DNA from: Anaerolineae bacterium
GTDB taxonomy: Bacteria; Chloroflexota; Anaerolineae; Aggregatilineales; J027
Reading direction: 5' to 3'
Length of the DNA stretch: 64,000 nucleotides
NCBI GenBank assembly: GCA_021463865.1
Contig: JAJTXY010000011.1
Span: 1,761-65,760, forward strand
In this document: piece by piece, positions 475-21,206 of the stretch
Position numbering within the stretch: the stretch's first letter is position 1
How the letters are laid out: every line of letters starts with the position of its first letter
Made by a program: the position numbers and the translations under genes
Notes under the pieces: model-generated
Told to the model about the DNA's origin: nothing
Seen by the model: the letters and a program-made list of their open reading frames with translations, nothing else
The model's database searches: none

Positions 475-894
475 TCACATACCCCCATCTTTCAGCTTCT
501 CCAATACCCGCCGAAATTTGAGAAATGCCCGTGCCAATTCCTTATGCCCGTTAATCGTCCCACGCACATCCATCCACACCCCCGGCGAAAGCACTGGCGC
601 GATAGCTTCCACGTGGTCATATTTGGCGACCAAAGCCTCTGCACTGTCCAGCGGGATATTCATCGCCACAATCGCCACTGCCTCAATCATTTCTTTGGCC
701 CCCATCTCATCAACCGTCAGCCCTTCCCACGAGGCCAGCGCGAAATCTTCTTTGCTGATGTGCCGAATCTCATTCCCGACCTGCACCATGTACACCGGGC
801 CCGGTTTGTTCATCATGAACCCCGGCAGGATGGAGACGACAAACGCCTCCTCCCCCGTCTTTAGCTGATACTTCTGTCCGCCACGAATCTCCAT
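475..894 (-). CDS. hypothetical protein (139 aa)
   Basis: ORF with protein-like composition in the operon orientation. Its stop lies 5 nt before the primase ATG. Confidence 0.5.
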   Translation of the reverse strand: MEIRGGQKYQLKTGEEAFVVSILPGFMMNKPGPVYMVQVGNEIRHISKEDFALASWEGLTVDEMGAKEMIEAVAIVAMNIPLDSAEALVAKYDHVEAIAPVLSPGVWMDVRGTINGHKELARAFLKFRRVLEKLKDGGM

Positions 895-1005
895 TATCAG
901 AATGACCTTTCTTTGAATCCTAATCCTCTAACCCACGCGCGGCATCTTCGATGTTCCCGATCTTCTCTTCGACCATCTTAGTCACTTCGATAGTCCTCTC
1001 GTCCC

Positions 1006-1461
1006 CTACCAACCGAGCCACTTGCAGCATTCCCCCGCTGCCGCTACGTTTTCCAGAATGGCGATCTTTGCCCGCAGGCTGCCATTGGGTTTCCCTTTCG
1101 GTGTAATGGGGGAGGTAATAGTCGCCTTCGACCCATTACCATTGGACGGCTTTTCTTCTGGCAAGGTGAGATCGTAACTATCTCGAATCTCAAACTGCCA
1201 ATCGGCACTCCGCTTTCGTCCCCCACCCGGTTTGCGTCCCGGCTTTGGCCCCGGTTTCCGCTCTGTCCCAATTAGCTCAATCAATTCGCCCTCGGTGCAT
1301 TCCAGTGCATCTGCCAAAGCCTCAATATGTTTCGTGGGCCGTGTGCCTGAAATCCACTGCGTAACCTGCCCCGAACCCACGCCAATCTTCTTCGCCAGTT
1401 GGTTCTGATTCATGTCCAATTCCGCCAACCGGTCTTTGATGAATTCTCCTAATGCGCTCAT
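1006..1461 (-). CDS. XRE-family helix-turn-helix DNA-binding protein
   Basis: MSALGEFIKDRLAELDMNQNQLAKKIGVGSGQVTQWISGTRP is a typical Cro/C1 HTH. I chose the internal ATG at 1461, which overlaps the upstream stop (TGATG). The C-terminus is basic and Gly/Pro-rich. Confidence 0.7.
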   Translation of the reverse strand: MSALGEFIKDRLAELDMNQNQLAKKIGVGSGQVTQWISGTRPTKHIEALADALECTEGELIELIGTERKPGPKPGRKPGGGRKRSADWQFEIRDSYDLTLPEEKPSNGNGSKATITSPITPKGKPNGSLRAKIAILENVAAAGECCKWLGW

Positions 1462-2003
1462 CACTTCCCCTCCAACCGGATAATCCCCGGCGTGCCATGC
1501 ACCAATTCCCGCGCAATCGTGTTTAACATCACCATCGCGGCGACGGCGGGTTGATTGGCCGGATGCCCCACGATGTAACACACCACACAATAGACCGTCT
1601 TGCCTTCATGCAGCGGGATATTCACCTCCGCCCATTCCGACTCAAAATCTTCCGCGTCCAAATGCTCGACCTTCACCCCCTGCTCATTGAAGGTCACGCG
1701 CCGATACAATTCGATATAGGCCGGTTGATTCAATAGCAGCCGCCTCTTAGCTTCCTCGGCTTCCTCCAAAATGATGGTTTCAACTTCCGCCGTATCTTCT
1801 AAATCATCCGACCATGAATCATCGGCCCAGCCCACGATGCGCGGATCATCATTCACCTGCACATTCACCGCGATTCCCTTCCACAGATAGCCCCCGCACC
1901 GAGGACATTCCGGCGCTTCCGGCACTTCATCCAACGACACGACCTCGACGGCACATTTCGCACCGCAGTGTTCGCATGTCTTTTCAATAATCTCAGTCAC
2001 CAC
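1461..2003 (-). CDS. zinc-ribbon protein (hypothetical)
   Basis: N-terminal CEHCGAKC...CPRCGG forms two CxxC pairs. The gene sits in the operon. Confidence 0.5.
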   Translation of the reverse strand: MVTEIIEKTCEHCGAKCAVEVVSLDEVPEAPECPRCGGYLWKGIAVNVQVNDDPRIVGWADDSWSDDLEDTAEVETIILEEAEEAKRRLLLNQPAYIELYRRVTFNEQGVKVEHLDAEDFESEWAEVNIPLHEGKTVYCVVCYIVGHPANQPAVAAMVMLNTIARELVHGTPGIIRLEGK

Positions 2004-2516
2004 TCACGCTCCTAAACTCAATAGATCTAAAATCCGATTGGAAAAGTCCTGTTGTAAGTCGCATTCTGTCAACACAAGCACCTTCATCCGCCGGGCCAGC
2101 GCCTTGACTTTCTGGCGGTCCCGCTCTGCATGAAACTGGTGTGCATAGAATCCATTGACCTCAATCGCCAACTCCCGCCCATGATGGGAGACGTGGAAAT
2201 CCACCAGATACACCTTGCCGCCGCGAACCTTGAACCACCATTCGCGCTGATAATAAAGTCCAAGCTCGTCCAACTTCTGGGCCACCAGCTGCTCCAAATT
2301 CGAGGGGTTGGCCCACCGATATTTTTGCATCTGCTGGACGGCGATCTTCTCTCCATACTTAGCTTTCGTCGCTGCCCATCCTTTCGGCGCAATGTTCCGG
2401 TTATGACACACCTTGCAAGTCTTAGACCGTCGTGCATTGCTTGGATGAACCAATCGCACTTGGCCGCATTGGGAGCAGATGACTTCTACTTTTTGGCCTT
2501 TTTTAGAACCAGCCAT
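2004..2516 (-). CDS. PD-(D/E)xK-type endonuclease-like protein (DUF559/Vsr-like) with N-terminal Cys4 motif
   Basis: The C-terminus YLVDFHV...LAIEVNGFYAH...ERDRQK resembles the D...E-x-N/K core of DUF559/Vsr nucleases. CSQCG...CKVCH is N-terminal. Start chosen at MAGSKKGQ. Confidence 0.45.
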   Translation of the reverse strand: MAGSKKGQKVEVICSQCGQVRLVHPSNARRSKTCKVCHNRNIAPKGWAATKAKYGEKIAVQQMQKYRWANPSNLEQLVAQKLDELGLYYQREWWFKVRGGKVYLVDFHVSHHGRELAIEVNGFYAHQFHAERDRQKVKALARRMKVLVLTECDLQQDFSNRILDLLSLGA

Positions 2517-2533
2517 CCGAAATTTTTCTCCAA

Positions 2534-2609
2534 TTCCGTCAGTGCTTTTGACACATGACACTTGACGAAATTTCCGTCAGTTGTCAAAACCACTGACACT
2601 TTTTTCGAT
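2534..2609. repeat. Two tandem 38-bp direct repeats (TTCCGTCAGT-N11-xTGACACTT), iteron/operator-like
   Basis: TTCCGTCAGT occurs at 2534 and 2572, and (A/C)TGACACTT at 2555 and 2593, exactly 38 nt apart. The repeats lie in the only sizeable intergenic gap inside the module. Confidence 0.6.
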
Positions 2610-2611
2610 TT

Positions 2612-4210
2612 TTAAATCAGCCGATACCGATATTTCCCGTTGCCAAATTCCTCGCCGGTGATAACTTGATCCATCAGCAGCGCATTAATCGCCGCCTTTG
2701 CATCCTGCCGGGGAATAGAGGTGCCTCGATAAATATCCCGTTCCGTCTGTGGCATCGCCGCACTACGCAGGAAATCAAGTATCCGGTCTTCATTCCGAAT
2801 GTCCCGATTCCGTCCAAGCTCCGTAATCAACCGGTGGGCTGATTCCCGCCACCGCTCGACCACCTGTTGAGCCAGCGCCCAATGCCCAATCTTGACCCGC
2901 ACATTTTTGTTGTCGTTATTTAAGATCCAATCCGTCGCGGCGATCTGGATTGCGACCTTCAGCACCATGACAGCAAACCGTCCATAGTTCCCGCGCATCC
3001 GTTCATCCAATCCCGAATCTGGTGCCGTGAATTGGTGCATCGCTTCAGCATACGCATTGAATCGTCGAATTACTTCCGGCTCTGCGCTTGCCGAAATCGC
3101 GTGCAATTCACCCGCTGGTGAGTCACCATCATCCAGCGCTTCGAGTGGTCGCGGATGTGGCAGCCGGCGATCCAAGTCTTGCAGGATAGAGAGAACCGAT
3201 GTGGGTGGGTCAAAGTGAACATCTTGCCTGCCGCTCGGTTGCCAGTGGATAACCTCATTCTCTGGTGTGCAGAGCGCGAAGCGTGCAAACAGTCCATCTT
3301 CCCATTCGCTCCCATTGGTCAGTCCTGCGAGCCGAGCCGGGGTTGTGGCGCCGAGGATGCTCAGATACGCCTGCCGAACGACCAGCTTCCCCATGCCGAG
3401 CACGGCCCGTTCATACACGTCCGGTGCATCATAGAAATTCATGACCACTTCCGCGAACCCCTTCATGTAATCCTTTTGGGAAAACAAAGTGGAGGCCTCG
3501 TCTACCACAATCCCCCGCTGCGCCGCATACGCCCGTCCTTTGTCCTCAATCGTCTTTTGGAAGGGTGATAAATCTTCGTAGTTGCTAACCGAGTTCCCTG
3601 CCATCTGCGAGAGAATCATTTCTGGCGTCGCCTGTGCTGCGAGTAGCAGGTGTGAAGCTGCTGACCGTGCCAGCGTCTCAACTGCCCTTAGCCCGGTGGA
3701 TTTTTTGTAATACGTCGTCGGGGCCACCCACAACACATAGAGGTTTGGATAGATGTCGGCAAAGTCCAATCGTAGGCTGATCCGCCGTGCAATCGTCAAC
3801 CCCAGCGCCCACAGTCCCCCCGATTCGAGGAAGATCGGGCTGGTCATGCTGGCCCGCTGCTTGGCCCATTCCATGTATCGGTGAAGCCACCAACCGCACT
3901 TCTCCGCCGCGACCAAATCCTCCTCATTCAGCTTGCAGGTTTCTGGCAGCGCTGGTACATGGATATGCTTTTTCTGGATCACCGGCACGGGCGGGGGGTC
4001 TTGTGGGTTAATCTCAAAAATCCGCCCCACGAACGAATCTCCCCACAACTGCCGGATCGCCTCAATCCGTTCTCGAAGCAAATCTTGATTTCCCCCGATC
4101 TGCTCCAAAATCATTCGCACAAAGGGATGGACGGGGAGGTCATCGGTTGGCATCCCCACCAGCGCCCGTGCCAGTGCATACGCCTCCGTCTGCCCTGCGA
4201 TAAGTGTCAT
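2612..4210 (-). CDS. large replication-associated protein (possibly DUF3987/primase-associated helicase-like)
   Basis: 532-aa ORF sitting between the partition and nuclease genes. The family assignment is from memory of DUF3987-type proteins only. No clear Walker A motif was seen. Confidence 0.4.
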   Translation of the reverse strand: MTLIAGQTEAYALARALVGMPTDDLPVHPFVRMILEQIGGNQDLLRERIEAIRQLWGDSFVGRIFEINPQDPPPVPVIQKKHIHVPALPETCKLNEEDLVAAEKCGWWLHRYMEWAKQRASMTSPIFLESGGLWALGLTIARRISLRLDFADIYPNLYVLWVAPTTYYKKSTGLRAVETLARSAASHLLLAAQATPEMILSQMAGNSVSNYEDLSPFQKTIEDKGRAYAAQRGIVVDEASTLFSQKDYMKGFAEVVMNFYDAPDVYERAVLGMGKLVVRQAYLSILGATTPARLAGLTNGSEWEDGLFARFALCTPENEVIHWQPSGRQDVHFDPPTSVLSILQDLDRRLPHPRPLEALDDGDSPAGELHAISASAEPEVIRRFNAYAEAMHQFTAPDSGLDERMRGNYGRFAVMVLKVAIQIAATDWILNNDNKNVRVKIGHWALAQQVVERWRESAHRLITELGRNRDIRNEDRILDFLRSAAMPQTERDIYRGTSIPRQDAKAAINALLMDQVITGEEFGNGKYRYRLI

Positions 4211-16351: not shown

Positions 16352-19168
16352 TTAGACCACGACACTAATCATCTTGCGGTCAGCGATGTAGATGACTTTG
16401 CGCGGCTGCTTACCTTCCAAATATTTCTGGACGGCAGGCGAGGCCAATGTGTATTGCGTCGCTTCCTCTTGCGTCACCCCAGCGGGTACAACGATACGGT
16501 CACGCACCTTGCCATTCACTTGAATCACCAATTCAATTTCATCCTCGGCGGCAATAGCAGGATCATACACAGGCCACTGCTGATGATGGATACTGTAGGG
16601 TTGACCCATGCGGGCCCATAGCTCCTCCGCAATAAACGGCGTCACCGGAGCCATCAATTTCAGCATGGTTTCAACGGCCTCTTGCCATGCCTCGGCGCTA
16701 ACATCGCCCGCCCGTTGGATGGCATTTTTGAATTCCATCAGACCTGCCACCGCCGTATTAAAGCTAAACGCGCCCATATCGTCAGTGACCCGTTTGATAG
16801 CCTGATGTGTCTTACGCCGCAGATCACGATCCGCTTTGCTGGTATCTTCAACCGCCGCAACCGCAGATGGGGCGGCGTGGACGATATTCCACACGTCCTC
16901 CAACCAGCGCACGACACCCTTAATGCCCTGACTATCCCATGGGCCGCCTTTCTCCCACCGGAAGGCAAACATCATATAGGCGCGGGTGGTATCCGCTCCA
17001 TACTGCTCCACAATCTGATCAGGGTTGACCACATTGCCCTTGCTCTTGGACATCTTTTCTACGTCCAAACGATATTTAATCTGGTCAATGCCGCCGCCTG
17101 CCCCAAAGCCAGCGATTTCAAAAGTGGTGTCCGGGTCAGTTTCGACAATCACATCCCGGCCTTCGGGTGTTTCAACGGTCAGTGTATTCTCGCTGCGTTT
17201 GGTCACCTCACCCACGACAATTGTCGCACTGGCCGAGGGGGCATCCTCAAATGAACCAATGACAGCCACATCGTTAGCCATGAACTTGTGTCCTTCATAA
17301 TGACCGGATGCCACGATGATATGTCCATCACGTGGTTCACCCAAAATGATGCCCTGATTGCGCAGGACAATCATGGGTTCATTGAAAATACGCTCAATTT
17401 CGGCCTCAGTTGCCCCGTTTTGGCGCATGACGGCGATAGTATCATCAAAAATGCCGCAGTCCCGCATGGCTTTGGTGAAGTAGCGTGTGTACAACAGGTG
17501 CATCGTGGCGTGTTCAATCCCGCCCGTGTAGGTATCCACTGGCAGCCAATAAGCTGCTTCTTGTGGATCAAAGGCCTCGTCATTATCCCACGGGCTTAGA
17601 TAGCGATATTGATACCATGATGAGCACATAAAGGTATCCATCGTATCGGTTTCGCGTTTGGCAGGGCCGCCACACTTGGGACAGGTCGTATTTAGGAAAC
17701 CGGGGTGTGAGCGTAATGGACTTTCACCCGTTGGCATGAATTCCACATCGTCCGGCAGCAGCACGGGCAGGTCACTTTCGGGGACAGGCACTGCCCCACA
17801 GTTGTCACAATAGATAATCGGAATCGGCGCACCCCAATAGCGCTGACGGCTAATTAACCAATCGCGCAGGCGGTAGTTAATTCCTAGTTTGCCGATCTGA
17901 TTTTCTTCCAGCCATGCCGTCACCGCTTTGACACCGGGATTCTTACTGCCCTTCTCTTCATTCACCGGCGTGCCATTAAACGGGCCGCTGTTGACCATCA
18001 CCCCTGACCCTGACCATGCCTCGACCATCGTATCGCCATTCAAAGGTTCGGTGCCTTCTGGCTGAATCACAGGGATAATCGGTAGGTTGAATTTACGGGC
18101 AAAAGCGAAGTCGCGTTCATCATGGGCTGGCACTGCCATAATCGCCCCTGTTCCGTAGGTCAGCAGGACATAATCGGCAATCCAAATTGGAATCCGCTCC
18201 CGATTAACTGGATTAATGGCATACCCCCCCGTCCACACCCCCGTTTTTTCTTTCCCTTCGGCGGTACGATCAATTTCCGACTTGCGTCCAGCCGCCTCAA
18301 TATAAGCCGCCACCTCATTTTGTTGGGCTGGCGTCGTCACTTTTTGTACCAATGGGTGTTCGGGGGCCAACACCATAAAAGTCGCCCCCCACAGTGTGTC
18401 GGGTCGGGTGGTAAAGATTTCGATGGGGTCTTCATCTTCGGTCATGAAGGTGACATAAGCTCCTTCACTGCGCCCGATCCAATTTTCCTGCATGAACCGT
18501 ACACGCTCCGGCCAATCAATCTTGCTATAGTCCAGCAGTTCTTCGGCATATTTGGTAATGCGGAAAAACCATTGGTCTAGGTCTTTCTTGATGACGGGTG
18601 TCCCGCAGCGTTCACAAACGCGATCTTCGCCAACAACCTGCTCACGAGCTAACGTAGTATTGCAGTTCGGACAGAAATCCACCGACGACATTTTCTTATA
18701 GGCTAGGCCGTTTTCATAAAACTTCAGGAAAAACCATTCCGTCCATTTGTAGTATTCGGGGTCGCAGCTAATGACCTCGCGGGACCAATCAAACATCGCC
18801 CCCATCTTTTTCATTTGGCCTTCCATCCGCTTGATATTGGCATACGTCCATGTTTTGGGATGGATACGACGTTGAATAGCGGCGTTTTCGGCGGGCAAGC
18901 CAAACGCATCAAAGCCCATCGGGAACATTACATTGTAACCCTGCATCCGCATAAAACGGGCACGTGCATCGGATGGGGCCATTGGATACCAATGACCGAT
19001 ATGCAAGTCACCACTGGTATAGGGGAGCATCGTCAGCGCATAATATTTAGGGCGGCTGCGGTCAATTTGGCTGCGATACAGTTCATCTTGCTCCCATTTT
19101 TCGCGCCATTTGGCTTCAACTTCTGACGGGACATAGGTCATCGTTTTTTGCTGGTCAGTCATCGTCAT
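16352..19168 (-). CDS. leuS: leucine--tRNA ligase
   Basis: HIGHWY (HIGH motif), KMSKSKGN, a CP1 editing domain pattern and a length of 938 aa. Confidence 0.95.
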   Translation of the reverse strand: MTMTDQQKTMTYVPSEVEAKWREKWEQDELYRSQIDRSRPKYYALTMLPYTSGDLHIGHWYPMAPSDARARFMRMQGYNVMFPMGFDAFGLPAENAAIQRRIHPKTWTYANIKRMEGQMKKMGAMFDWSREVISCDPEYYKWTEWFFLKFYENGLAYKKMSSVDFCPNCNTTLAREQVVGEDRVCERCGTPVIKKDLDQWFFRITKYAEELLDYSKIDWPERVRFMQENWIGRSEGAYVTFMTEDEDPIEIFTTRPDTLWGATFMVLAPEHPLVQKVTTPAQQNEVAAYIEAAGRKSEIDRTAEGKEKTGVWTGGYAINPVNRERIPIWIADYVLLTYGTGAIMAVPAHDERDFAFARKFNLPIIPVIQPEGTEPLNGDTMVEAWSGSGVMVNSGPFNGTPVNEEKGSKNPGVKAVTAWLEENQIGKLGINYRLRDWLISRQRYWGAPIPIIYCDNCGAVPVPESDLPVLLPDDVEFMPTGESPLRSHPGFLNTTCPKCGGPAKRETDTMDTFMCSSWYQYRYLSPWDNDEAFDPQEAAYWLPVDTYTGGIEHATMHLLYTRYFTKAMRDCGIFDDTIAVMRQNGATEAEIERIFNEPMIVLRNQGIILGEPRDGHIIVASGHYEGHKFMANDVAVIGSFEDAPSASATIVVGEVTKRSENTLTVETPEGRDVIVETDPDTTFEIAGFGAGGGIDQIKYRLDVEKMSKSKGNVVNPDQIVEQYGADTTRAYMMFAFRWEKGGPWDSQGIKGVVRWLEDVWNIVHAAPSAVAAVEDTSKADRDLRRKTHQAIKRVTDDMGAFSFNTAVAGLMEFKNAIQRAGDVSAEAWQEAVETMLKLMAPVTPFIAEELWARMGQPYSIHHQQWPVYDPAIAAEDEIELVIQVNGKVRDRIVVPAGVTQEEATQYTLASPAVQKYLEGKQPRKVIYIADRKMISVVV

Positions 19169-19193: not shown

Positions 19194-19223
19194 AAAAAAC
19201 CGCACGGTTTGGGCCGCACGGTT
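19194..19223 (-). terminator. intrinsic terminator/attenuator hairpin ending about 25 nt before the leuS start codon
   Basis: On the minus strand, AACCGTGCGG-CCCAAA-CCGTGCGGTT forms a 10 bp stem with 2 G-U pairs, running into TTTTTTG. The RBS AAAGGGAG and the ATG at 19168 follow. Confidence 0.65.
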
Positions 19224-19263
19224 CTTGAAAGTTCCCGGTTAAGTGTTAAAGGGGGCTGGTCGC

Positions 19264-19410
19264 TTAACGTTTATCTAAGCGCCGTGAACGCTCCCGCACT
19301 GGAATCGGTTGAGGAACAGGCGGCGTCGGTTGCAGTATTCTACCAAGTGTATTAAGAAGCTCCCGCAGGCGGTCAGCGACACGAGTGTTATTTTCAGCTT
19401 TCTTGCTCAC
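19264..19410 (-). CDS. small hypothetical protein (48 aa from GTG; the ORF track gives a 69-aa version from 19473)
   Basis: AAAGGAG lies 7 nt before GTG 19410. The product reads VSKKAENNTRVADRLRELLNTLGRILQPTPPVPQPIPVRERSRRLDKR. Confidence 0.4.
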   Translation of the reverse strand: MSKKAENNTRVADRLRELLNTLGRILQPTPPVPQPIPVRERSRRLDKR

Positions 19411-19471
19411 GGCACGCTCCTTTGACAGGTAAGATTCAAAGCCGCTAGTTTTTACCGATGGTGTTAGAAAC

Positions 19472-19502
19472 ATTATAAAGGCATTTCCTGCAAAATGGTC
19501 AA
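19472..19502 (-). promoter_or_regulatory. possible sigma70-type promoter downstream of the T-box terminator
   Basis: TTGACC (19502-19497) and TATAAT (19477-19472). The 19-nt spacer is longer than optimal. Confidence 0.3.
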
Positions 19503-19548
19503 TTATTTATAATCTTTTGACGTGATGTCTGTCATGTTTCTTTCGTCA

Positions 19549-19912
19549 GTAAAAAACAAAAATCCCTCTCATCTACCCTGTCAAGCCATTTTTAGCTGAC
19601 AGGAACGAAAGGGATTTCGCGGTACCATCCTGATTGATGACAATTCTCTAACAAATTTGGTGGACCTGAGGGGATTCGAACCCCTGACCTCTTCAATGCC
19701 ATTGAAGCGCTCTCCCAGCTGAGCTACAGGCCCATATCATCCACTTAATTGCCGCGTAACGTGCGCTTTTACGGCACAGCCTACTTTATCATTTCAACTG
19801 TGCGGCTCTGGGGCGAGTTTAGCCTTTTACGGTGTGTGTCGAGTCCACCATTGTTGGGTTTCCACCATCCCCAACTCGCTGCAACACTGGCCTACTATTC
19901 CCCTTCAAAGCC
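19549..19912 (-). promoter_or_regulatory. T-box riboswitch leader, Leu (CUC) specifier, with embedded tRNA-Ala gene
   Basis: Read on the minus strand. K-turn: GGC-UUUGAA-GGGG...CCCC-AGA-GCC. Specifier loop: 5' AAUAGUA and 3' AAA-CUC-G, with CUC at 19817-19815. AG bulge AGCGA; distal stem-loop GUUGGG-GAUGGUGGAAA-CCCAAC. T-box sequence AAUCAGGAUGGUACCGCG at 19635-19618. Antiterminator: CAGGA/UCCUG plus CGAAA-UCCC-UUUCG flanking the 7-nt bulge UGGUACC. Terminator: AAAUCCCU...CCUGUCA...UGACAGG...AGGGAUUU followed by a U-run. Confidence 0.8.
19658..19733 (-). tRNA. tRNA-Ala (anticodon GGC), CCA encoded
   Basis: GGGCCTG-TA-GCTC-AGCTGGGA-GAGC-G-CTTCA-ATGGCAT-TGAAG-AGGTC-AGGGG-TTCGAAT-CCCCT-CAGGTCC-ACCA. 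This is a perfect cloverleaf with the G3:U70 alanine identity pair. Confidence 0.95.
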
Positions 19913-19941
19913 ATTGGCATATCAATTTGTAAGGTACAAGG

Positions 19942-19971
19942 ATTTTAAACGTCGTGCCCACCCATTGTCAA
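19942..19971 (-). promoter_or_regulatory. probable promoter of the T-box/tRNA-Ala/leuS leader
   Basis: TTGACA (19971-19966), an 18-nt spacer and TAAAAT (19947-19942), immediately after the LCP gene stop. Confidence 0.5.
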
Positions 19972-19979
19972 GGTTTGGT

Positions 19980-21206
19980 TTAAGGTTGTGCGGCAGTTGG
20001 AGGCGCGAACAATTCTGCCACCAATGCCAAAATATCACTCACGATGGGTACGAGAATATCTTCGCCATTTGGCCCAACCTGTGGAATAGTCTCCCCATAG
20101 GTAATCGAGCCATTTTTGATATTCTCACGCGGGATTTGCTCGGCTACCAATGCTAATTCCAATAGCTCTTGGAAGGTCATATCGGTCTGCACATTGGCGC
20201 TGACCGATTCCCAAATATTCTGTGCCTCCGAAAACAATCCCGTCGCCCCACCCAACGACATCAACTTCTCACGCACCGCAAAAATCACCTCTTGCTGGCG
20301 GGTTGCCCGGTCAATATCACCATTTTCGGTGGCACGAGTACGGGCATATTCCAATAACCGCTCGGCAGGCAGATTTTGACAACCCGCATCGAAATGCACT
20401 GGGCGAATACCGTAGCTCCCATCAGGATATTTCGGGTCGTCAATCGGTGCGGGTGGGCAAACTTCGACCTCCCCAATCGCATTGACAAAGGTGATAAAGG
20501 CATCAAAGTTAATCATGATATAGTAATCAATGTTGATGCCGATGAGTCCTTGAATTACCTGTTTGACATATTCCGGCCCCCCACCGGGATACTGGATGCT
20601 CTCACCGACAATATTGGCCGTGTTGATTTTGCCCTCGCTCCCAATGCTCGGAAACGTCACATAAAGGTCACGGGGGATGGACAAAATCGCCCCGGTCTTG
20701 GCAAGCGGATTCAGGCTCAACAGCATAATGGTGTCAGTCGGAAACGGCCCAGTTTCGCCCTGTCGCTGGTCAATGCCAAGCAGCAAAATATTGACGCGGC
20801 GCGGGTCTGCTAATTGATAATCAATGGGATTGAGACTAGCCTCTGTCGTTGCAACTTCCGTACTCACCGGGTCGGGGGTTGCCGTCGAATCGGTTGGGAT
20901 GGGTGTGCCATCTACCGCAGAGGTTGTTGCATCAGATGTAACTTGCACGGTAGGCTGAATGATGATGGGCGGCGGCGTCACATCTGTGCCAGTACCGGGG
21001 GCTTCGGGTTCTTTCAATCCCAAAAGCAACTCGGCTACCCGGACGACATCCACACCCTCTTCCAATGGCGCAATTTCGTTGAGTTCTTCCGTTCGGGTAC
21101 GGGCCTGTGAATAGGTAACTATGCCAGCCGCAATCGTGCCGACCATTGCCACAATCACCCACCCCATAATCGCCCATAGTGGTATACGCATCAAAATTCG
21201 CTCCAA
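19980..21206 (-). CDS. LytR-CpsA-Psr (LCP) family cell-envelope phosphotransferase
   Basis: N-terminal TM segment, then NILLLGIDQR...TDTIMLLSLNP...ILSIPRDLYV. Confidence 0.85.
   Translation of the reverse strand: MERILMRIPLWAIMGWVIVAMVGTIAAGIVTYSQARTRTEELNEIAPLEEGVDVVRVAELLLGLKEPEAPGTGTDVTPPPIIIQPTVQVTSDATTSAVDGTPIPTDSTATPDPVSTEVATTEASLNPIDYQLADPRRVNILLLGIDQRQGETGPFPTDTIMLLSLNPLAKTGAILSIPRDLYVTFPSIGSEGKINTANIVGESIQYPGGGPEYVKQVIQGLIGINIDYYIMINFDAFITFVNAIGEVEVCPPAPIDDPKYPDGSYGIRPVHFDAGCQNLPAERLLEYARTRATENGDIDRATRQQEVIFAVREKLMSLGGATGLFSEAQNIWESVSANVQTDMTFQELLELALVAEQIPRENIKNGSITYGETIPQVGPNGEDILVPIVSDILALVAELFAPPTAAQP

Follow-up and report, generated by a model that had tools for sequence, protein, structure and literature searches.

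We analysed a window of 64,000 nucleotides (nt) from an Anaerolineae bacterium (contig JAJTXY010000011.1 of assembly GCA_021463865.1, positions 1,761 to 65,760) and found, on its minus strand and upstream of the leucine--tRNA ligase gene leuS, a T-box leader in which a complete gene for tRNA-Ala(GGC) occupies the loop of Stem III. The two halves of the T-box pair across the tRNA, the arrangement is conserved among relatives, and most copies have no space for a promoter of the tRNA's own. We think it probable that the locus is a transcription-attenuating Leu(CUC) T-box carrying a functional tRNA gene, in which one leader serves both as a tRNA-Ala precursor and as a leucine switch. Both the T-box and the tRNA are genuine, and their nested arrangement is widespread, under selection and, as far as we found, undescribed. 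A search of the full-text literature, which took in the TBDB database paper and comparative surveys of T-boxes, from whose coverage many subscription-journal papers are missing and which may thus overlook a prior mention, returned no published tRNA gene inside a T-box.

The T-box is complete. A permissive Rfam scan of positions 19400-20100 matched RF00230 at 19598-19917(-) along the full model (1-219), with 87 bits and an E-value of 1.8e-19, and placed the tRNA as an 85-nt insertion within the Stem III loop of the model. This confirms the Leu(CUC) T-box that a first-pass annotation of the sequence had read on the minus strand, and the parts listed there (promoter, Stem I, Stem II, antiterminator, terminator) can all be seen in the sequence or in the Rfam alignment. 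The leader promoter (19942..19971, on the minus strand like every feature of the window given below) is a near-consensus TTGACA-N18-TAAAAT with 11 of 12 matches in the promoter scan, and a CTTGACA...TAGAAT element holds the equivalent position in L002, L003, L004, L006, L042, L043, L049 and L079. The decoding half (19747..19917) matches the 5' part of the model and consists of Stem I, Stem II and the IIA/B region. Stem I has a K-turn (UGAAG...AGUA), an AGCGA bulge, a GGUGG distal loop and a specifier loop, where the leucine codon CUC (19815..19817) stands in the context AAA-CUC-G; Stem II is GCACAG/CUGUGC (19803-19798 and 19779-19774), and the F-box CGUUA of the IIA/B region lies at 19761-19757.

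Beyond the tRNA, the antiterminator (19600..19632; model positions ~186-219) is made of A1 (CAGGA/UCCUG) and A2 (CGAAA-UCCC-UUUCG, with a closing G-U pair), between which lies the T-box bulge UGGUACC (19627-19621). The UGGU of this bulge is complementary to ACCA, and bacterial tRNA-Leu carries A73. Minimum-free-energy folding of the leader returned the cloverleaf, a helix closing round it, and a long competing terminator hairpin with its U-run (UUUUUGUUUUUU, 19551..19617) that takes up the 3' strands of both A1 and A2. Coverage of the model, the Stem I parts, the purine motif of Stem III, a UGGN bulge with an exclusive terminator, and a downstream gene that matches the specifier all place the element in RF00230. 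These features extend to relatives: base changes in Stem I and Stem II compensate one another across 11 of them (RNAalifold), the specifier upstream of the tRNA is CUC in every one of the 74 loci with readable context (out of 91 assessable), and a U-run follows the tRNA within 220 nt in 75 of 91.

The embedded gene is equally complete. ARAGORN identified tRNA-Ala(GGC) at 19658..19733 (76 nt), where RF00005 scores 65.9 bits (E 4e-12). The cloverleaf, the GGC anticodon and the G3:U70 identity pair make it a tRNA-Ala; the acceptor stem is GGGCCUG/CAGGUCC, followed by the discriminator A73 and an encoded CCA. The initial description of a complete tRNA-Ala(GGC) with G3:U70 and CCA at 19733-19658 was therefore accurate, and the two halves of the T-box match do flank this high-scoring tRNA. 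The 98 embedded copies that we compared represent 67 distinct sequences, with G3:U70 in every acceptor variant listed and compensatory changes at other acceptor positions. Judging from such comparisons, the embedded tRNA is under purifying selection; this, together with its orthology to the free-standing tRNA-Ala(GGC) of other relatives (layout B, below), suggests that it is expressed, processed and aminoacylated.

Two ways in which the tRNA might take part in sensing were discarded. Only 52 of the 98 copies encode CCA, so pairing of the tRNA's own ACCA end with the UGGU bulge is not conserved. Cross-talk between alanine and leucine, one of the options raised in the first-pass annotation, would call for an alanine specifier and is unsupported, since every readable specifier is CUC; the nearby GCC/GCU triplets belong to the helix of Stem I. 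As a separate matter of annotation, the permissive scan reported the embedded tRNA-Ala of L085, L100, L111, L128, L169 and L196 as a sub-threshold tmRNA (RF00023, 34-46 bits, gathering score 47) and not as a tRNA. These calls are an artefact of clan competition and could mislead automated annotation.

The relation between the two elements is set by Stem III. The purine motif RRRxG...AA that flanks this stem is an integral and indispensable part of the discriminator that senses aminoacylation, and the stem and loop themselves are variable and accept insertions (PMC7583486). In the window, the purine string AAGUG and the 5' arm GAUGAUA (19735..19746) were located by a motif-anchored search, and this arm covaries with the 3' arm; the latter, UGUCAUC, lies beyond the tRNA together with the conserved AA (19634..19642), was located by the anchored search, and is paired with 19741-19735 in the minimum-free-energy fold. 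The outcome is a Stem III of 7 base pairs (GAUGAUA/UGUCAUC) whose loop is the tRNA with its linkers, 92 nt in all: 1 nt separates the 5' arm from the tRNA, and 15 nt lie between the CCA of the tRNA and the 3' arm. The earlier suggestion that the tRNA sits in place of Stem III must thus be given up, because an intact stem with its purine motif surrounds it. The RRRxG...AA motif is likewise retained among relatives with an embedded tRNA.

The arms of this stem covary across the tRNA. Alignments of full leaders with MAFFT and RNAalifold misplaced Stem III, because the linkers vary in length, and we used motif-anchored arms instead, positioned solely by fixed offsets from two flanking motifs, [AG]AGTG ahead of the 5' arm and AA-N6-TGGTACC behind the 3' arm. 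The strict [AG]AGTG anchor failed in about 40 of 100 loci, and a few mis-anchored rows were kept, which makes the following pairing figures conservative. Across 54 distinct arm pairs, 81% of the cells are paired, against 59% in shuffles, and changes on both sides affect 112 cells, against 46. The covariation score is 0.658, compared with 0.277 in shuffles, and none of 500 shuffles reached it; sliding the partner by 1-3 columns gave 0.08-0.19. Pairs as different as GACAAAU/AUUUGUC, GCCGGAU/AUCCGGC and GGUAGAA/UUCUACC are found in relatives. Arms that covary on either side of the tRNA must both lie in one RNA.

This last requirement speaks against reading the locus as two independent transcription units that overlap, with a tRNA promoter hidden inside the decoding half and an embedding that is purely positional, which we regard as highly improbable. 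Such a reading could draw on the promoter-like elements inside the Stem III loop of L063, L073, L075 and L182, and on the fact that Chloroflexota promoters may differ from the sigma-70 consensus that was scanned. The geometry of most loci leaves it little scope, however. The linker from the 5' arm of Stem III to tRNA position +1 is at most 26 nt in 57 of 66 well-anchored loci (median ~5 nt, 1 nt in the window), and what lies upstream of a short linker is constrained T-box structure, so that most copies have no room for a tRNA promoter. In the window, the sigma-70 scan, from whose consensus Chloroflexota promoters may deviate, found no promoter-like site directly upstream of the tRNA; its only minus-strand sites are 19971-19942 and 19531-19502. 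The first-pass annotation had likewise seen no separate promoter and had read the tRNA as co-transcribed. A dedicated tRNA promoter was accordingly rejected for the window, and candidates for one occur in only a few relatives with long linkers. Co-transcription from the leader promoter appears to be the only economical reading for most copies.

Loci at which a tRNA-Ala precedes the T-box point the same way. In L080 (layout B, ~2735-2890), Stem I starts ~25 nt past tRNA-Ala(GGC), and in L063 (3314-3560) the stretch from tRNA-Ala(CGC) to Stem I has no promoter-like site. The leuS T-box thus seems to be habitually contained within a tRNA-Ala transcript in this lineage, as though it were the tail of a tRNA-Ala operon.

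The nested arrangement recurs among relatives. Among 80 loci anchored on LeuRS, the closest of which belongs to an Anaerolineae metagenome-assembled genome (MAG) with 97% identity, 16 share with the window a tRNA-Ala(GGC) inside Stem III of a Leu T-box (layout A: L001-4, L006, L010, L011, L017, L042, L043, L049, L063, L071, L073, L075 and L079). About 20 others (L053-L080) have layout B, in which tRNA-Ala(CGC) and tRNA-Ala(GGC) stand upstream of an ordinary, complete Leu T-box and leuS, and Stem III forms an ordinary hairpin, long in some loci, with loops of 5-93 nt. A neighbour-joining tree of LeuRS distributes layout A over at least four clades, including Aggregatilineaceae-like bacteria, Promineifilum, Ardenticatenaceae/Leptofilum and the window's own clade, among which loci of layout B and loci without a T-box are interspersed. 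LeuRS proteins are only 55-70% identical among the layout A clades, which indicates retention over deep divergence. L062 has a similar base of Stem III closing a loop of only 15 nt, without a tRNA.

A scan of metagenome contigs for GTGGTACCRCG at 28-58 nt behind a tRNA T-loop gave a consistent picture: about 108 of the 120 matches listed have tRNA-Ala(GGC) and then the T-box motif, most of them followed by LeuRS. Conservation of the insertion in the leuS leaders of relatives, which the first-pass annotation had singled out as informative, is thus seen in genomes and metagenomes alike. Of the loci tested with RF00230, 19 of 20 from metagenomes (39.9-112.8 bits, seven of which reach the gathering score) and all six from genomes gave a full-length match across the tRNA, although the T-box scores of some relatives are weak (40-55 bits). 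The recurrence of the composite in more than 100 independent assemblies rules out an assembly artefact. No embedded tRNA other than tRNA-Ala(GGC) was seen among the 120 matches listed, all of which had to contain the exact GTGGTACCRCG, so that other cases may exist. A tRNA-His in L124 was rejected as a chance palindrome without a T-box, and ~10 further matches among those listed lack any tRNA.

Two layout A loci have departed from the common plan. L071 (~3500-3790) is decayed: the 5' side of Stem I and the distal loop are kept, as are the tRNA, the T-box motif, the terminator and a promoter-like site within the leader, whereas the specifier strand, Stem II and the 5' arm of Stem III are gone. 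In L075 (~630-4000), the T-box with its embedded tRNA is parted from leuS by a 3.1-kb insertion with a 339-aa open reading frame (ORF) and a 642-aa ORF whose N-terminus is ATPase-like (GINDCGKST). This insertion may be a mobile or defence-type element that settled at the junction of leader and gene.

How might one RNA serve both ends? We propose that transcription from the strong leader promoter would proceed through Stem I, Stem II, the IIA/B region and the 5' arm of Stem III, and then through the tRNA and the 3' arm, whereupon Stem III would close on the folded cloverleaf and the discriminator could still form. The antiterminator and terminator would be reached next, the terminator lying ~100 nt past the tRNA. 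The decision of the switch would depend on uncharged tRNA-Leu(GAG) and be taken co-transcriptionally; it could hence precede excision of the tRNA by RNase P and a 3' enzyme. Every transcript, terminated or read-through, would be a tRNA-Ala precursor from which these enzymes later free the tRNA. As all leader transcripts would hold the tRNA, we propose that tRNA-Ala(GGC) is made constitutively and at a high level. The T-box terminator would double as the terminator of the tRNA gene and as a leucine-responsive gate for leuS, the two genes sharing one promoter and one conditional terminator, and leuS (in the window with a small ORF) would receive the read-through fraction only. Processing would strip the decoding half off the read-through mRNA, even if the 7 base pairs of Stem III could keep the pieces of the leader joined after excision. 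Among the meanings first considered for the locus, that of a tRNA hitch-hiking on a constitutively transcribed, terminated leader is the one that the evidence favors.

The tRNA might instead be an active part of the switch and not its passenger. The folded body could lengthen Stem III and so act as a structural or kinetic module, it could impose a transcriptional delay or serve as a folding clamp, or excision by RNase P or RNase Z could be a regulatory step that stabilizes or resets leuS mRNA and couples tRNA maturation capacity to the expression of the synthetase. The retention of the layout in several clades over the divergence noted above would fit such a role, and so would the tight embedding of many copies, with 0-5 nt on the 5' side and down to 3-6 nt on the 3' side, which could allow the acceptor stem to stack on Stem III. 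Yet in close relatives with layout B the tRNA stands upstream and an ordinary Stem III suffices, L062 has only its 15-nt loop, and linkers that range over all loci from 0 to more than 100 nt (5') and from 3 to 31 nt (3') speak against a fixed geometry. On balance an active tRNA seems to us unlikely.

Cleavage of T-box leaders has precedents, one of them the B. subtilis thrS leader. T-box leader cleavage is known to affect mRNA stability: in the S. aureus met leader, a cut by RNase III is reported to shorten the 5' end of the mRNA and to alter the fate of the transcript (PMC7913692). The arrangement described here would be alike in this respect, and would differ from both the met and the thrS leaders in that the cutters would be tRNA-maturation enzymes drawn by the embedded tRNA. 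If excision were obligatory, the switch would be split in two pieces joined by Stem III, the cut would set the 5' end and the stability of leuS mRNA, and leuS output would depend on tRNA-maturation capacity as well as on the charging of tRNA-Leu. That the embedded tRNA is a working component, either because its body stacked on Stem III shapes the folding or timing of the discriminator or because its excision by RNase P or RNase Z is obligatory, is a minority view that we would not discount.

Under the passenger reading that we prefer, what lies between terminator and leuS determines how much of the gene is gated. The leuS gene (16352..19168, 938 aa) is identified by TIGR00396 (974 bits, cutoff 548), which upholds the first-pass description of a leuS leader in its essentials; the gene is, however, not directly behind the terminator, since ~380 nt separate the latter (~19551) from the ATG (19168), with a small ORF and a hairpin between. 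The ORF (19264..19410) has 48 aa, a GTG start and a GGAG ribosome-binding site. Homologues of 43-49 aa occupy the same place in L001, L004, L006, L043, L049 and L079 with the common pattern xDRLRELLxxLxxxLxPxQPxPxPxPVRxxxRRR, and on the strength of this sequence conservation we take the ORF to be real. It has no significant Pfam match (best E 0.9), and a longer 69-aa version found nothing in NCBIfam. The hairpin (19195..19226), terminator-like, with a U-run and 27 nt before the start codon, came from the terminator scan, and L049 has a similar one after its small ORF. Transcription of leuS would have to pass it; attenuator, stabilizer and leaky terminator are candidate roles. A promoter-like TTGACC-N19-TATAAT (19470-19502) stands between the T-box terminator, which it follows by ~50 nt, and the small ORF. 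It was seen by eye, and its spacer exceeds the limit of the scan by 1 nt. If active, it would allow T-box-independent transcription of the small ORF and leuS.

The spacer has other conserved content in relatives. A motif, GTCTGCTCCCTTCTCGCGG, is conserved ~150-350 nt upstream of leuS in L004, L006, L043 and L079 (alignment columns ~635-655). Because the reading frame across it differs between the ORFs of L004 and L006 that contain it, the motif resembles an RNA or DNA element more than coding sequence. The window lacks it, and no Rfam family matches either the motif or, in relatives, the spacer between the small ORF and leuS.

In the window, the additional sequence that parts the terminator from leuS, with its promoter-like element, might be taken to mean that the T-box is a relic, disabled when the tRNA inserted, whose 3' half now only terminates the tRNA while leuS is transcribed from another promoter. 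The decay of L071, where promoter, tRNA, T-box motif and terminator are what is left, and the T-box scores of only 40-55 bits in some relatives could be read likewise. Relics, though, are not expected to show the covariation found in Stem I and Stem II, nor would one account for the retention of both halves in ~100 sequences with an invariant CUC specifier, for the covariation of Stem III across the tRNA, or for the retained purine motifs. In addition, several lineages have no room for a promoter between terminator and leuS: in L010, L017, L063 and L073, only 36-71 nt separate leuS from the point 60 nt beyond the T-box motif, and the terminator stands directly before the gene, which suggests that control of leuS is the ancestral role. 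We therefore hold a relic to be very unlikely; the T-box of the window probably gates the small ORF and leuS, possibly with a second promoter alongside.

Several points nevertheless weigh against a leader that is both tRNA precursor and leucine switch, or limit its reach. Only from sequence do we infer co-transcription, processing, antitermination, the order of decision and cleavage, and the continued regulation of leuS. With 87 bits, the T-box of the window falls just under the Rfam gathering score of 93 for RF00230, because of the 85-nt insert, and Rfam at gathering thresholds reported three tRNAs and no T-box in the whole window. In the long-linker minority clade of L063, L073, L075 and L182, the Stem III loop contains a promoter-like element (for example TTGCAC-17-TAAAAT), from which, on its sequence, the tRNA can presumably also be transcribed alone; such transcripts, being without Stem I, should always stop at the T-box terminator. 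The gap between terminator and leuS is ~380-650 nt in the window and its clade, and the promoter-like site, small ORF and hairpin within it may leave leuS only partly under T-box control in the window. Finally, Stem III pairing in the window reaches tRNA position -2, which may slow RNase P.

The composite resembles several known systems without coinciding with any of them. Like the tRNAs in the spacers of rRNA operons and those of the E. coli tRNA-tufB operon, which are co-transcribed and freed by RNase P, the embedded tRNA would mature from a longer dual-function transcript under one shared promoter. Those tRNAs sit between functional units, whereas this one lies inside a folded regulatory RNA whose halves must pair. 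With canonical leuS T-boxes (RF00230; Bacillus-type Leu CUC leaders) the leader shares all modules, the CUC specifier and the downstream leuS; it differs in having a complete tRNA gene with linkers (92 nt) as its Stem III loop, and leuS 380 nt beyond the terminator and behind a small ORF. Lineage-specific insertions are known from T-boxes, namely stem Sa of staphylococcal glyS and the insertions in Stem III or A2 of translational T-boxes (PMC9177973, PMC4574755, PMC7583486). They too are clade-restricted insertions tolerated in the discriminator domain, but they are simple hairpins without a coding role, and the insert described here is a separate gene whose product must be excised. A related arrangement is layout B, with the same tRNA, T-box specificity and downstream gene and, in L080, a spacing of ~25 nt between tRNA and Stem I that makes co-transcription evident; there the tRNA stands ahead of Stem I and not within Stem III.

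The literature searched gave no precedent for a functional gene nested in the sensing architecture of a riboswitch. Layout A spans several orders of Anaerolineae, bacteria that are abundant in activated sludge, soils and sediments. It indicates that the T-box discriminator tolerates a structured insert of 75-120 nt in Stem III, and that a riboswitch can stay under selection even though its RNA is, as we propose, destined for cutting by tRNA-processing enzymes. It also offers a natural precedent for tRNA-scaffold designs. In genome annotation it marks a blind spot, because the insert lowers the T-box score under the Rfam gathering threshold in the window and in most relatives checked, and where the score passes the threshold the match overlaps the tRNA gene. 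The arrangement raises the questions of whether the T-box decision is complete before RNase P acts, whether Stem III can hold together a two-piece T-box, and what cleavage does to the stability of the mRNA.

Some observations concern the wider neighborhood of leuS. Four loci with an actinobacterial label (L041, L044, L046 and L051, from Acidimicrobiia or Ca. Spongiisociaceae MAGs) have tRNA-Ala(GGC) 0.9-1.5 kb upstream of a Chloroflexota-like LeuRS, and the T-box motif is absent there; ancient synteny or a transfer of the locus could account for this. Three layout A genomes encode the RNase P RNA (RF00010, 260-284 bits) on the opposite strand, ~800 nt downstream of leuS (L002 7579-7950, L006 7616-7977 and L043 7602-7972, all on the minus strand), a striking proximity, given that the leader would depend on RNase P; the window does not have this gene. 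The same three genomes have a further T-box of the ordinary kind (71-80 bits), again on the minus strand and ~3.5 kb past leuS, at 9887-10126 in L002, 10255-10494 in L006 and 10222-10460 in L043.

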